49,817 nt of DNA from Catajapyx aquilonaris. Its lineage: Eukaryota. This document shows positions 17,372-24,168 of this stretch, in pieces; position 1 is the stretch's first letter; each line of letters opens with the position of its first letter. Under the pieces are notes generated by a model. It did no database searches and was not told the origin of the DNA. It was given only the letters and a program-made list of their open reading frames with translations. A program made the translations under genes and the position numbers. The stretch lies in NCBI GenBank assembly GCA_000934665.2, contig JYFJ02002856.1, positions 1-49,817 of the forward strand, given 5' to 3'.

Positions 17372-19634
17372 GTACCCTATCCCCACGATTTGCCGTGTGT
17401 CATGTGAAATGGCACACAGTTTTGTGTCTTTTGACAAAAAACGCGTTGACAAGATTGCCTGGCAGCTTAATTTGTGTGTCATATGACATCTAGTTCTGGT
17501 TTAAAAGTGTGCCACAGTTTCTGTAGAATCGGGCCTCCAATTAGGGGCGCAACGAGCTACAAAAAAATAACGGCTTTGAGCAAAATTTCCTATACTAAAA
17601 GAACTAATATACTTGGAACACCTTTGTGGCACATTTCATGCCCATGAACATGGCTCAATTACTCGCCAATCATTGTTGCCTGCTGTCAAAAATTAACAGA
17701 CTTTTTTGTCAAATGTGAATTTTTGTCACGTTCGAATTCTTATAACTACGAGTAAAAGGTAGCTTACTGATAATAATAAAACTTCTAATACTACGTATGT
17801 GCATGCTATTGTTTTTAAGATGAACAACACTAATCAAATTCTTCCGTCCCTTAGCAACCCTGATGTAACGCGTAGATAACATGCCTCAAGTCCTAACGTT
17901 GTGACGATAATGAAGTAGAATGAGAGCCCTGAAAGGTAGCATTTATACAGACTGGATGGGTATGTGACTTGTCTATTTTGAGAGCAATATGCGCTGAGGT
18001 GCTTTCAGGCATGGAGTATTGTACACTCATCTCTGAAAGGAAAATTCATGAGAAAATAGGTTTATAAATCTGCAGAAGAGAGGCGGGCACATATCTTTCG
18101 ATTGTTTTGCACAAACAAACAAATGGGCGGCACGACCAGCACTCTCCGAAGAAAGGTGTAAAACGTCCCAAGACCGCGCCCTTTCTAACTCAAGGCTGAC
18201 AAGTCGCAATAATTTCAGGGTTGTTAACTTCCCTTAACGGGACATTCGGAAGCCATAATGTGTTTGCTCTCGTCAATGGTTTAATGATTATCACCGAAAG
18301 CGTCCTGCTCAACTTCACCACAGCTTCCAACATCCTCCCTTGTCCCTAAATCCTTTCTTCTCAATTACGCATTACGCGTTTCCTTCCTTTATTAACATCT
18401 CTTTGAGCCTTTTCCGCTGTAGTTTTGCTTCAATGCCTTGGCTCCTATCCCTAGGATGTTATTTCTGTTTATTGAAAAGTAGACAAGCTTATGGTGCACA
18501 TCTGCTTCAAAGATTTAGGGGCCATAACGCGTTCTGCTTCCCTCTCTTGCCATGAGCCAATGACCCTACACATGGCTTTTTTGCGAAGCTTTTCTCTTTA
18601 TGGCCGTATTACTGGGGAAGCCAGATAGAGACCCTTATAGTTATATGAAGAGAGGATAGGGGAGAGAGGAGATGGGGGCACAATGGGTCGAAACCTCAGT
18701 CGCCCTGGGTATATGCAGAAAGCGGGCATCGTCCTAGAAGCTTTACGCGGTCCTCATGAGACGGTTATGGGCATTACTGATGTTACTAAGCCCATTAAAG
18801 ATCTTATAGGCATAGGCAGTAGGATGCATGCCATCAATTCTCTCTTTCCATATCTTTTCTCAGCTACAACAGCAGTGCGCCTATATGCATTTCCCGAATG
18901 TAAATGAAACTATCCATTCAGATCACTTAGTAGATTGAGGCATTGTAATATGTTGGTTCATGAATTACTTTGAAATATCGTGCAATTTGAATCATATGTA
19001 CTACAGTAGCTACTACATAATAATACAATATTACTCGAGAGATACACACAAATTACTGGCGACAGCTATTTTGGTTGTCACAAATATATTTCTGATGGGA
19101 AGAGCAATTATTCTGTTCACGTTTTGTATGACTTAATTTGCACCACGATGTTTAAAAGGGAGTAATAATAATATCAGGATAAGTTGACAATAAGGAAACT
19201 TGCACTTGACAGTGTGGTTGTGCACCATGTAAAGGAAAAACCAGTGTCCTTCAGAGGGTCGTCTATATATTCTTGCAAATATCATGTTACATCTACGGAG
19301 GATAAGATGCAGCAGGTACGTAACGGCGCAGGTGTACATGTACATTGTGACAACAGGAGGGAACAAATTCATAACGTTCACTTATAATGACTGGAAAATA
19401 AGGTGCACAGGGTCACGTCATTCTACAGCTAGTGTATTTATCAAACCGCTGCGCTGCGTGAAGTGTATGTACAGTCCCGCTCATAAAGAATGGTACGACT
19501 CTATGGACGACGTGTTTATTCTGACTATCCAGCATTATTCCCCCGAGCTCTTCAACTGTTTTACAACCTTTTGTTTTAATATTGCAGAATGTTTTTTACC
19601 CTGTATTTTTATCCTGTAAAAGACTCGCTTTATA

Positions 19635-19843
19635 CAGGGTGTCTCAACTTTTTTGTCCGAACAGTTATCGGAAAAGCCTATGTATCTTCTAGCTCTGTAG
19701 CCAGAATATTCCCCAACATTCCTGGCACATCCCTCAACTGATAAAGCCAGGGAAGCATCACTGGTTGAAAGTCACTGCTAAAAATAAGCAGCTTAGTGCA
19801 ATATTTCCGATAATTGTTCGGACAAAAAAGTTTACACACCCTG
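19635..19843. mobile_element. Tc1/mariner CAGGGTG-type MITE
   Basis: TA-CAGGGTGTCTCAACTTTTTTGTCCGAACAGTTATCGGAAA...TTTCCGATAATTGTTCGGACAAAAAAGTTTACACACCCTG-TA. Confidence 0.9.
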
Positions 19844-19874
19844 TATATGATTTTGTGGATACAAAAATTTAGTG

Positions 19875-20206: not shown

Positions 20207-20427
20207 TACACTAAATACGTTAGGAACTTTTGTAATGTTTTGTATACAATATAACAGCAGTTCAGAACATAATAGGCTATGCAACATGCACTAGTTGATA
20301 TTTTGTTATGTAGTTTCAATAACTTCAAAGTTACAAGTTACAAGAATCTGTGAAGCGATAATGATTTTCATCAGACAATTTCTGGACAGGAAGACAGTGT
20401 AAGGCTTTTATGTATAGTTATTATACA

Positions 20428-20716
20428 CTCTCTAAAAAAAATAGAGTTAAAAAAACTCAAGTTGGGTTCTTTTTAACTCTTTTAACCTTGAAAGTGGTCA
20501 TTACCAAAAATGAGTTATAATAACTCTTTCGCTGGAGTTAAAACAACTCTTTCAGTTCATTTCATCCTCCGAAAGAGTTATTCATTAACTCTTTCGGAGG
20601 ATGAAATGAACTAAAAGAGTTGTTTGAACTCCAGCAAAGAGTTATTATAACTCATTTTTGGTAATGACCACTTTCAAGGTTTAAAAGAGTTAATTTAACT
20701 CTTATTTTTTAGAGAG
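20428..20716. mobile_element. AT-rich palindromic element, CACTA/EnSpm/Mirage-like, nested in the left tip of the mariner fold-back
   Basis: (CA)CTCTCTAAAAAA...TTTTTTAGAGAG(CA); ~110-bp near-perfect inner arms around a 5-nt loop at 20581-20585; repeated GAGTTA..TAACTC units; CA duplicated at 20426-27 and 20717-18. Confidence 0.8.
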
Positions 20717-21476
20717 CATGTTGGGAAAAATTAATAGGAGGATATGAATCACGTGATACGGTTGTGCTATTTGCGCATGCGCTGGATATTGGCATGTGCT
20801 GGAGTGGGGAAGGTATGTCAAATGCAAAAATAGCGTCGTGGTCAGCAGAACACCATTCATTAGTCGTGGAGGATAATTTTAAAAATAACGAGTCCCCTGT
20901 AGCTGTACAAAGGATATTTCTTCGCCTCTTTGGGCTGGGACGTCATGACAAAGTCCCCGACCACCGGAGATTCATAAGGTGGGTGAAGCAGTTCTGGGAC
21001 TCAGCTTCAAACCGGGACTAGAAAGCGCTGGACGTCAAAGGAAACAGAGGACCCCTCAACGGGTACAAGAGGTAGGCAATGCGCTACTCCGAAGTCCTCA
21101 GCGATCGGCCATTCGAAGCTTCGATGAGGGGTCCGATGTGTCCTTTACTGACGTCCAGTGCTTTCTGGTCCCGGTTTGAAGCTGTGTCCCAGAACTGCTT
21201 CACCCACCTTATGAACGTCCGGTGGTCGGGGACTTTGTCCTGACCTCGCAGCCCAAAGAGGCGAAGAAATATCCTCTGTACAGCATGCTACAGGGGACTC
21301 GTTATTTTTTAAAAATAATCCTCCACGACGAATACATGGTGTTCTGCTGACCCCGACGCTATTTTTGCAAATGGCACACCTTCCCCACTCCAGCACATGC
21401 CAATATCCCGCTCATGCGCAAATAGCACCACCGTACCACGTGGTTCAAATTCTGCTATTCATTTTGCCCAACCGTG
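20717..21476. mobile_element. Mariner-derived fold-back: inverted duplication of the left TIR, 5' UTR and transposase N-terminus
   Basis: Arms 20717-21058 and 21125-21476 are reverse complements; right terminus reads TA-CACGGTTGGGCAAAATGAATAG on the minus strand. Confidence 0.9.
20830..21118 (+). pseudogene. Tc1/mariner transposase N-terminal HTH remnant (DUF4817-like)
   Basis: (I)ASWSAEHHSLVVEDNFKNNESPVAVQRIFLRLFGLGRHDKVPDHRRFIRWVKQF, then after a frameshift SAGRQRKQRTPQRVQEVGNALLRSPQRSAIR; fits the WxxEHRAFVVExYFKNNESxxxxQRxFRxxF...VPxxxxIxxWVxxF...GRPRxxRTPExVxxV....RSPxRS pattern; likely ATG is ATA. Confidence 0.8.
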
Positions 21477-23106
21477 TACAAGTAGATTCGTGGTACTGTA
21501 TCCTTTACCGACATTCCTGCAGTATTTTTTGCCCATTGATCGAGTTTGTGAACCAACAACCTGGGGATTTCATTCTCGATTGTGAGCGAGGGAGCAGGGT
21601 ATATGCGTATGGCTGCGCGGCTGATGGGTTGGAAACGCTGGGAATTGAATGTAAGAAGAAAATCTGCCATAGGAAGTTGGAAAAATTGTCTGGAGGGAAG
21701 CATATCGGTTCACAGACTTTTGTAAAGTTGTAATATGGGAATCTGCGTTATTACAGTTTTACTGAACTTCTTATGACAAACAAATAAAACAATGTCCCTG
21801 AGATATTGCTATCATACAGGATTGTACTTGTTAGTCTGAAACGGCTAATATTTTTCACTTTCCAAATGCCCGTTTGAATTTAAACAAAACATAAATGACG
21901 ATTATTTTCTTTTTGACGTGTACGGCATTTATATTACAGATACACTGAACCTGAAAAAATTGCAGGACAAGCCTGCAAATTTCTGTTTGAGTTTTATTAA
22001 TACTTCCATTTCTCATAAACCTCAACAGTATCTCCTGTGTGCAGTAGAATGTGTCCTAAAACTTAACTATCCAATCACATTACCTTATTCCAACTGAGCA
22101 ATAAAACCCATATTGTAAAAAAAATCCCCCAAAAATACTAGTAGCAAAATCTGAAAATAGCTGAACAGGATCGCAAATTACCTGGCCCCAGAAACTATAC
22201 CATTACTTGAAGATGCAGCTGCAAATACCGAGGAAGTAGAGTGACGATATCGTACATGTATCAGGACGAAGCTTAAAAATATCGTAAAAGCTACCCGATG
22301 CTGGTGGCGTGAAAGTAAGGTTCATCAAGCCTCTGCCTTGCCTCATTTTCTGTTTGGGCAAGCAGCCCTCCTCTTTGTGGTTAATGCCAAAAGATGGGAT
22401 GTAGTTTTATGGTTGAAGCTCCTACGTTGAAGGAGGCCAAGTGACGCATCCCGCTTGCTTTCAATTTGGAGCATCCATCGCGTTTGTCGTTCCATTATGG
22501 GGCCATGTCATCGGATGGAAAAGGGGCGGAAGGGATTTCAGCAGCCTATTTTGTCCATGGGAACCTTTCTCACCGCACTACCCTCATAATGTCGCACCGC
22601 GCCAAATTTAAGCCGACGCTTAAAAAAATATTGGGCCATGTTTCCTTCCGCTCGTAGGCGCCGCGTGTTGTATGAACAAGCCGCCCACATAGTCACATTT
22701 TCCGCTTGCAAGAGGCCCTACTTCAGCAGACGTTCCCTGTTTGTGTTGATCGTCTGGAAGACTTAGATATAGCCATAAGCTACGCCTTCTTACGAGCTGG
22801 GTAAATGGGAGATAGGATTTGCCACGCTATACTTATGCTTGTAAGGTAAATCAAATGGGCTAGTCTAATGATGTGTGAAAGAGGGGCTCGCAAGAGGAGG
22901 AAAGCCTACACTACACTGCTCATGCGCGCAGTGTTAGACTTGTGGATACCATCAGTCGGCAAGTTGGCGTGGTGAGGACCCAGTCATCAAGATAGAGACC
23001 CCAATCGGCCTATAGGTCAGCTGCCACCTCTTACAGAGCAAAATAGATAAATTGAATGGCAATAAAGAGGCTCTCAAAGACACGGAATATTGTTTGACAC
23101 AAGGTA

Positions 23107-24168
23107 CACCCAAAAAAAAAATTGTTGACAGAACCAAAAATTTTTGGTAGAATGCTAAAGGGTCGATTCAACCAAAACTGCACTTGCACCGAAAAAAAGG
23201 AATAAGTTGAAGTAACCAAAAAAATTTGGTAGAGTGCTAAAGGGTCGATTCAACCAAAAGTGCACTTCACCGAAAAAAAGGAATAAGTTGAAGTAACCAA
23301 AGAAATTTGGTAGAGTGCTAAAGGGTCGATTCAACCAAAACTGCACTTGGCAGAACCAAAATCACGCGGTTGGCGTAACAAAAAAAAATTGGTTGCAATT
23401 GCATTGGGGGCAGCCTCTCATGTTCAGGCCAGGTGAACGGGTGATTACTTTCCACCAGATGTTTGTCAGTTATAGGCGATGATGATATCATAACCAAGCC
23501 CTTGGGGCAACCTGACAGAGACATAATGTCCATCGGGTGGTTGAGTGCTCACCTGTTCCAGGCAGGAGTGGATGGGCTTCTTTGGGACGTTACAGAGATT
23601 CTCTGACTACTAGTGTTTAAACGCAAGTGTGAAGGATGGGGTCTCTGTAATTGAGAGAAGCTAACTGACATGCTATGCTGGGGCTAACCCCCTCCAGTGT
23701 AGGTACAGAGTACAAGTAATTCGACTGTACATTGGTGAATGACTCTTGAGCGACGACTGTATCATAAGTACCCACTGTGGGGGATTAGCTTTAACAGTAG
23801 TTGTCTACGGCCGCGCTTTGCGATTGTATTACGGGCAGCCTCTCATGTTCAGGTGATTACTTTCCGCCAGATGTGTGTCAGTTATAGGCGATGATGATAA
23901 TTATCATAACCAATGTGTTCGTTACCTCAACCGAAAACTTGGTTAGGAGAAACACGTCAGAAGAACCAAAATTTTGGTTACCTCAACCAAAAACTAGGTT
24001 AGGAGAAACACGTCAGAACAACCAATATTTTGGTTAACTCAACCAAAATGCGACAACCTATTTTTTTTGGTTACTTCAACCGAAATCTTGATAGGTTGTA
24101 TATTAACCCTCCAAATTCGGTTCCATAAACCATATTTTGGTTCTGTCAACAAATTTTTTTTTTCGGTG
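23107..24168. mobile_element. CACTA/EnSpm-like non-autonomous element with tandem terminal units and internal cargo
   Basis: CACCCAAAAAAAAAATTGTTGACAGAACCAAAA...TTTTGGTTCTGTCAACAAATTTTTTTTTTCGGTG; many AACCAA/TTGGTT subterminal motifs; three 80-81 bp tandem units at 23107, 23187, 23268; ~57-bp tandem at ~23921-24047. Confidence 0.8.

Follow-up and report, generated by a model that had tools for sequence, protein, structure and literature searches.

In Drosophila, Wallau et al. (2014) described long-TIR MITEs of mariner, in seven sublineages, that carry 5′ sequence in place of the 3′ portion (PMC4161770); and for Rpmar17 of Rhodnius prolixus, Filee et al. (2015) proposed a two-step model, a rearrangement followed by deletions around the breakpoint (PMC4678618). 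Recombination and conversion have been proposed as the cause of the long TIRs of Galileo (PMC3573991). The rosa/DD41D elements of aphids are about 1.3 kb at full length, with short TIRs and a D-D-D motif with 41-residue spacing (PMC5490172). In maize, Mu killer, one locus derived from Mutator, has demonstrated transcripts and dominantly silences active, matching MuDR (PMC3440606, which also disputes the read-through hairpin model). The hairpin described here belongs to a family (family A) that has all the testable features of end-replaced long-TIR MITEs, a layout known from Drosophila; and we consider it likely that the hairpin itself is a decayed, probably immobile copy of this non-autonomous fold-back MITE family, which had a two-step origin and whose arms have undergone conversion.

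The window (the whole stretch of 49,817 nt that was analysed) is rich in such elements, with 33 inverted-repeat pairs of at least 28 nt spaced at most 2.5 kb apart. The hairpin has two arms of about 345 bp each (Table 1), the right one closing at 21472 or 21476; 310 of the 351 aligned columns are identical (88%), so that the arms differ at 12% of columns, indels included. The 760-nt RNA of the hairpin has a minimum free energy of -586 kcal/mol (z = -46.7, versus 20 shuffles). The inverted hairpin with two ~345-bp arms, as described in an earlier reading of this DNA made from the sequence alone (the sequence-only reading), is thus real. Also present in the window are a 217-bp MITE at 19631-19847, which is TA-flanked and has 44-bp inverted ends beginning CAGGGTG, and an 81-nt unit repeated three times in tandem at 23105-23348. 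Of the window's 253 stop-to-stop frames of at least 62 aa, 133 were compared with Pfam, and no host gene was recognised among them; their lone match, INTS7_C (E = 0.004), is below cut-off.

Table 1. Coordinates of the hairpin and associated features in the window.
Feature	Position	Strand	Remarks
Original left target-site TA, and first TIR bases CA	20424-20425 (TA), 20426-20427 (CA)	+	probably displaced by the nested MITE, from comparison of flanks
Nested MITE	20428..20716	.	unrelated, young, 289-bp, palindromic; sits in the left TIR with CA duplicated
Rest of decayed left TIR	20717..20745	+	reads CATGTTGGGAAAA; family reads CAGGGTTGGGCAAAA
Left arm	20720..21061	+	TIR, 5′ leader, first ~77 codons of a DUF4817-type transposase
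Former start codon, left arm	20830..20832	+	now ATA; ATG there in family B and L105
DUF4817 helix-turn-helix match	20845..20994	+	Pfam PF16087, residues 12-61 of window 20812-21018
TAG stop (window copy); 1-nt deletion (both arms of family A)	21019-21021; near 21023	+	frame broken before the loop
Unpaired loop	21062..21113	+	native transposase sequence up to progenitor position ~400
Relic of older fold-back junction	21114..21122	+	~9 bases of the ancestral long arm
Right arm	21122..21476	-	second 5′ end, inverted; ends near progenitor position 348
Former start codon, right arm	21362-21360	-	ATA
Right TIR	about 21448-21476		one change in the terminal bases
Right target-site TA	21477..21478	+	

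The left-arm translation matches DUF4817 above the Pfam cut-off (E = 1.8e-5; 24.8 bits, cut-off 22.6), which bears out the transposase origin proposed from the sequence. The nearest full-length relative is L105, a frameshifted element of 1283 bp with 29-bp TIRs; the two arms align in order with its positions 7-399 and 3-346, and both are 68% identical to it over its first 350-400 bases. Thus both arms contain, as had been proposed, a 5′ TIR, a 5′ leader and about 77 transposase codons. At the start-codon position, ATA is read in both arms of the window copy, also as noted before. The loop, RVQEVGNALLRSPQRSAI, is native transposase sequence in the alignment to L105, and its end point (progenitor position ~400) is that of the short arm in the ~950-bp hairpins described below. 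The sequence-only reading had the loop continuing the coding frame of the left arm: the loop does continue the native transposase sequence, but not in the DUF4817 frame, which the TAG and the 1-nt deletion break; and the last codon of the loop peptide that it quoted is part of the junction relic, so that this peptide is not wholly native. A protein search of cluster representatives gave 142 matches at E<=0.001, mostly short (the best at 60% identity), and the three that were checked are all DUF4817 proteins. Among 13 candidates for longer relatives in the protein database, none reached E<=0.001, a result of little weight.

We searched the 286-Mb draft assembly (20,583 contigs) for further copies, and among the best 40 of 118 candidates, which were scored, we found family A at at least 28 loci on 28 contigs, with differing flanks. 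All 28 loci have one loop junction in common (a 30-nt probe finds it with at most 3 edits in 24), so the genome-wide copies with the same loop junction that the sequence-only reading proposed to look for do exist. Family-A copies begin CAGGGTTGGGCAAAATG at both ends; the bounded copies are 716-807 bp long and contain no intact transposase, and 13 of 16 bounded copies have TA on both sides. The mean distance to the family consensus is 5.7% (16 copies; a value slightly inflated by two badly bounded ones), and that of the window copy is 9.2%. Given the shared junction, the TA flanks and this divergence, we conclude that the hairpin spread by transposition a long time ago. Family A has the properties by which MITEs are recognised: it is shorter than 1000 bp, is present in two or more TIR-bearing copies whose flanks differ, and uses a TA target. 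One might suspect a snap-back chimera made in the library or during assembly, the assembly being a draft of so many contigs; but arms that differ by 12%, including indels, and a junction that recurs at 28 loci with different flanks leave this explanation a practically negligible chance. At one locus (L042:2411-7160; G000:C5345), an insertion separates the family-A arms by about 4.7 kb; it contains an open frame of 753 aa that may encode a hAT-like transposase. In another derivative, of 444 bp (L078:2921-3366; G000:C1214), one 5′ arm is full and the other very short.

The original left end of the window hairpin is at 20426, and the 289-bp MITE now found there has internal inverted repeats and belongs to a young family (all 40 candidates scored, of 115, are full-length at 93-100%). 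Its other copies have TA on the left in five of five cases and on the right in four of five; the window copy has CA on both sides. On the simplest reading of these bases, the MITE would have landed in the first two bases of the hairpin's left TIR, for which a length of about 29 bp is taken from L105; the last step in the history of the window copy would thus have been its decay and the entry of this younger MITE into its left TIR. Transposition needs two intact ends; since the left TIR is split and decayed, the window copy is probably immobile. The earlier description of a mobilisable MITE with two left TIRs therefore holds for the two 5′ TIRs and for the family, which was mobilised, but not for the window copy, whose left TIR is split.

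The genome also contains longer 5′-5′ hairpins, of about 890-960 bp, whose TIR ends are those of family A; they comprise a young family B and older scattered copies (X). Family B lies 1.2% from its consensus (17 copies), with 29 of 41 loop matches at >=96%; for example, L081:1459-2404 (G000:C672) is a ~947-bp 5′-5′ fold-back of this family, which occurs at at least 28 other loci. Family-B copies are about 2% apart and their arms only 81% alike; therefore an old, decayed hairpin was re-mobilised recently. Which transposase mobilised families A and B did not emerge from the searches of the draft assembly. The 25 B/X copies examined have one junction, where a long arm that extends to progenitor position ~566 meets a short arm that stops at ~400 (intact in 24 copies, and with a small deletion in the 25th). 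After position 400, the family-A copies L027 and L043 read CCAAGCTCC, the window copy reads CGAAGCTTC, and the flipped B/X copies read CCAAGCGTCC. The family-A loop ends at the B/X short-arm base, and then matches 9 of the next 10 B/X junction bases; these relic bases represent the antisense strand of transposase sequence located some 160 bp farther along (in the window copy, antisense to transposase positions ~558-566). Therefore family A is the ~950-bp hairpin minus about 200 bp of its long arm, and the simple one-step copy-back proposed before as its origin gives way to a derivation from the longer fold-back. We had also considered the seven bases after the loop as templated filler from the right arm; this was dropped, as the older junction explains them.

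The junctions thus suggest the following order of events. First, a ~1.3-kb element would have exchanged its 3′ part for an inverted 5′ part and so become a ~950-bp hairpin bounded by two 5′ TIRs; the junctions record the replacement itself, and its repair route is our reconstruction. Second, one descendant would have lost about 200 bp of the longer arm, a deletion to which the junction relic testifies, leaving a ~750-bp hairpin with nine junction bases. Third, this ~750-bp hairpin would have been copied to new TA sites; the dispersal is seen in the copies, and the enzyme was presumably a transposase supplied in trans. For the second event, deletion plus conversion is indistinguishable from a one-step re-copying of A's right arm, and "copy-back" is possibly the right term for it.

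It might be argued that family A arose separately, by one copy-back of a dead, ATG-less copy unrelated to the ~950-bp hairpins, since an ATG is found in none of the 51 family-A arms read, the 1-nt deletion is present in both arms, and all A arms form one clade (support 100/99). Yet later conversion or a secondary re-copy explains these shared lesions, and it is very unlikely that chance would give family A both the loop end of the B/X short arm and 9 of 10 of its junction bases; the junction relic has already largely refuted a separate origin, which we regard as very unlikely. For a family A derived from the longer hairpins, the spread would reflect two 5′ TIRs at a workable distance, and thus a good substrate, not an RNA function. 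Two further observations were made within family B. The locus L031/L133 (G000:C555) combines a family-B long arm and loop (97%) with a short arm that looks older, its distance from the B consensus being 3.2%, and is possibly a mosaic; and a near-perfect 41-nt palindrome, a small snap-back duplication within the hairpin, lies inside a family-B short arm at L081:2061-2101.

The arms do not evolve independently of each other. In the arm tree, both A arms group together (100/99), and likewise the two arms of L032 and the two arms of L033. Equivalent arms thus do not form a single clade, so a single origin without exchange does not hold; an AU test, of a hypothesis framed after sight of a first arm tree, rejects the no-exchange tree in which equivalent arms form one clade (p = 7.6e-58). 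Non-CpG variants common to both arms of a copy are in excess in all three families in which we counted them (observed versus expected, 17 vs 2.6 in 13 copies of A, 5 vs 0.3 in 16 copies of B, and 29 vs 2.3 in 14 copies of family T, a 3′-3′ fold-back described below), although some are inherited within sub-lineages and the counts overstate the number of independent conversion events. Arms paired across different copies share from about a third or less to under half as much as arms within a copy. Four copies (L018, L021, L027, and L111) whose bounds or orientation were wrong were left out of these arm statistics, and kept in the consensus-distance means of A and B. L032 has a private insertion in both arms. 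The arms have therefore repeatedly overwritten each other; the statistics show the overwriting itself, and the route may have been DNA-level conversion or template switching.

This exchange bears on the loss of the start codon. Among 23 family-A copies read on both arms, 18 are ATT/ATT, four are ATA/ATA and one is mixed; in family B, 14 of the 16 left arms and as many of the 16 right arms still have the ATG. Both arms of A carry the 1-nt deletion, which B, X, and L105 lack. The sequence-only reading had placed the loss of the ATG before the duplication, from its absence in both arms. Because family B keeps the ATG and the arms exchange sequence, the ATG was lost after the first fold-back, and the presence of a mutation in both arms dates nothing: concerted evolution of the arms is a warning against dating of this kind.

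Either transposon end can be duplicated. Two 3′-3′ fold-back types of the L105 lineage are found, one of them abundant (L146-L162 and L182, versus L144 and L145). Family T, a 3′-3′ fold-back of this lineage, has 14 bounded copies of 720-751 bp at 5.4% from their consensus; the second type (L144 and L145) is about 725 bp long. Exact TIR matches number 115 for the L105 lineage and 96 for A/B/X, and zero for the reversed controls. Hairpins without the 5′ leader have thus spread at least as well as those with it, at similar size.

We found no intact cognate master in the draft assembly, among the best-scoring candidates of searches with the arm protein, the family-B loop, PF16087 (127 matches, with 30 loci examined among them), L105 peptides (the 3′ half and a middle peptide), the TIR, and L164; these yielded only decayed relatives (L105, L104, L164, and L192), and the full-length master that the sequence-only reading had suggested searching for did not come to light in this assembly. 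The class of the lineage was read from these relatives. The spacing of the second D-D pair is 38 in L144/L145, from which three codons are absent, and 41 once those are counted from family T, L104, and L192; since this spacing is put together from overlapping decayed relatives and not from one intact frame, and the hairpin itself has no catalytic domain, we assign the lineage to the Tc1/mariner superfamily, probably rosa/DD41D. The mariner identity given before is not sustained in the strict sense (DD34D), the relatives having a spacing of 38/41 and not 34.

The arms might also be seen as the long TIRs of an autonomous LTIR-like element (DD40/41D), of which the hairpin would be a deletion derivative, as LTIR-like elements, which are related to rosa, are autonomous elements of more than 2.3 kb with TIRs of more than 460 bp (PMC5490172). 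L105 fits neither figure, the arms hold coding sequence, and the 14 single-ended exact TIR matches that we examined all run into 5′ sequence or arms; on the length and the 29-bp TIRs of L105 we rule out a long-TIR parent, as highly improbable. Other DUF4817 lineages are present in the assembly. L118 (G000:C4921; related L119, L121, L123, and L124) is ~1.9 kb long, with DD41D spacing in an open frame of 403 aa; it may have been active recently, and its TIR has only the first six bases in common with family A; L165 (G000:C10692) and L166 (G000:C3913) have DUF4817-type open frames of 376 and 344 aa, in which 46 residues separate the second D from the third. Pairs of DUF4817 matches in opposed orientation, some 230 bases apart and lacking any DNA match to family B, occur at G000:C362:102050-102432 (L129/L136) and G000:C316:37530-37874, and are probably 5′-5′ fold-backs of other DUF4817 lineages.

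The sequence-only reading had likened the hairpin to Mu killer and seen in it a self-spreading silencer, which if read through would make long dsRNA against its own master transposase. On a fuller form of this account, dsRNA from copies that were read through would target the master's 5′ end, silence the master and so end the lineage. In layout the hairpin matches Mu killer, in which one TIR is present twice and part of the transposase gene is inverted (PMC3440606); the predicted RNA duplex is about 345 bp long, with perfect runs of 31, 30, 27, 22, and 21 bp; endo-siRNAs map to MITEs in Aedes aegypti (PMC3259105); and RNAi in C. elegans is fed by read-through hairpins of Tc1 (review, PMC3878927). 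The absence of an intact cognate master from the draft-assembly searches has also been counted in its favour, but a missing master suits silencing and ordinary extinction alike. Several results point the other way. None of the 322 left-arm 21-mers is within 2 mismatches of L105, L104, or 11 other DUF4817 loci (all among the 127 PF16087 matches); the decayed fragment L164 is matched by four. Family B, whose TIR ends are the same, had its burst later (1.2% versus 5.7% for A) with older hairpins already present, although a diverged cross-mobiliser could explain this burst. The success of the 3′-3′ hairpins (115 versus 96 exact TIR matches, and without the 5′ leader) argues against a 5′-specific advantage, not against dsRNA in general. 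Wobble pairs show no strand bias (129 G-U versus 130 A-C in A, in a test of low power; 6 and 5 in the window copy), nor are they strand-biased in A, B, or T when unique site-pairs are counted (p = 0.28, 0.29, and 0.39). In addition, a mobile silencer of its sole transposase source would be expected to limit its own spread.

Overall we think it unlikely that the hairpins acted as a mobile silencer. Spelled out, that account has them landing in transcription units, with an RNA duplex of 300 bp or more that conversion keeps processable, and has the burst of family B riding on diverged transposases, a combination that also seems improbable to us. The indirect evidence thus lends no support to a selected silencer role for the fold-back family; incidental siRNA from some copies is plausible and would be nothing unusual, and, as has been suggested for the MITEs of insects in general, copies inside transcription units may yield hairpin RNA and endo-siRNAs as a by-product. 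If the small RNAs of such families did silence their masters, animals would have an equivalent of Mu killer that moves, as well as a way in which transposons can become extinct.

As it stands, the window hairpin is an ordinary decay product of a DNA transposon in a MITE-rich animal genome. It resembles maize Mu killer (PMC3440606) in having two 5′ TIR copies and an inverted 5′ part of the transposase gene; unlike that single locus, family A is dispersed and known from DNA alone, and no matching active master was found in the draft assembly. The hairpin is thus built like Mu killer, and a silencing function is not supported by what its sequence and those of its relatives suggest. The titles and abstract openings found in a literature search, which cover few subscription journals, hold no report of end-duplicated DD41D MITEs or of a Mu-killer role for them. 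The MITEs of aphid rosa are described as internal deletions (PMC5490172), whereas those found here are end duplications. Like family A, Galileo 2RT of Drosophila mojavensis (Marzo et al., 2013) has TIRs lengthened by inverted internal sequence, but Galileo belongs to the P superfamily, the extension is into non-coding flanks and the target duplication is 7 bp (PMC3573991).

The closest parallels are found in Drosophila and Rhodnius. In Dromar7, Dromar11, Dromar28, and Dromar36, as in family A, the 3′ part is replaced by 5′ sequence and the long TIRs have transposase homology; each has one breakpoint, was amplified in trans and uses a TA target (PMC4161770). The Dromar elements are mariner (DD34D), whereas the lineage here is of DUF4817 type, probably DD41D; and we traced a nested derivation from 950 to 750 bp together with the homogenisation of the arms, for which the available part of Wallau et al. 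(2014) reports no such test. Rpmar17 and Rpmar49 of Rhodnius prolixus likewise have one end replaced by the other, and long TIRs, and the elements are 900-970 bp in size; they duplicate the 3′ end, like family T and unlike the window copy, and the breakpoints of Rpmar17 copies vary, whereas family A has a single one (PMC4678618). The nested series found here, with ~950-bp 5′-5′ hairpins, a ~750-bp derivative, a recent burst and separate 3′-3′ fold-backs, supports the two-step origin proposed for the Rhodnius elements (PMC4678618).
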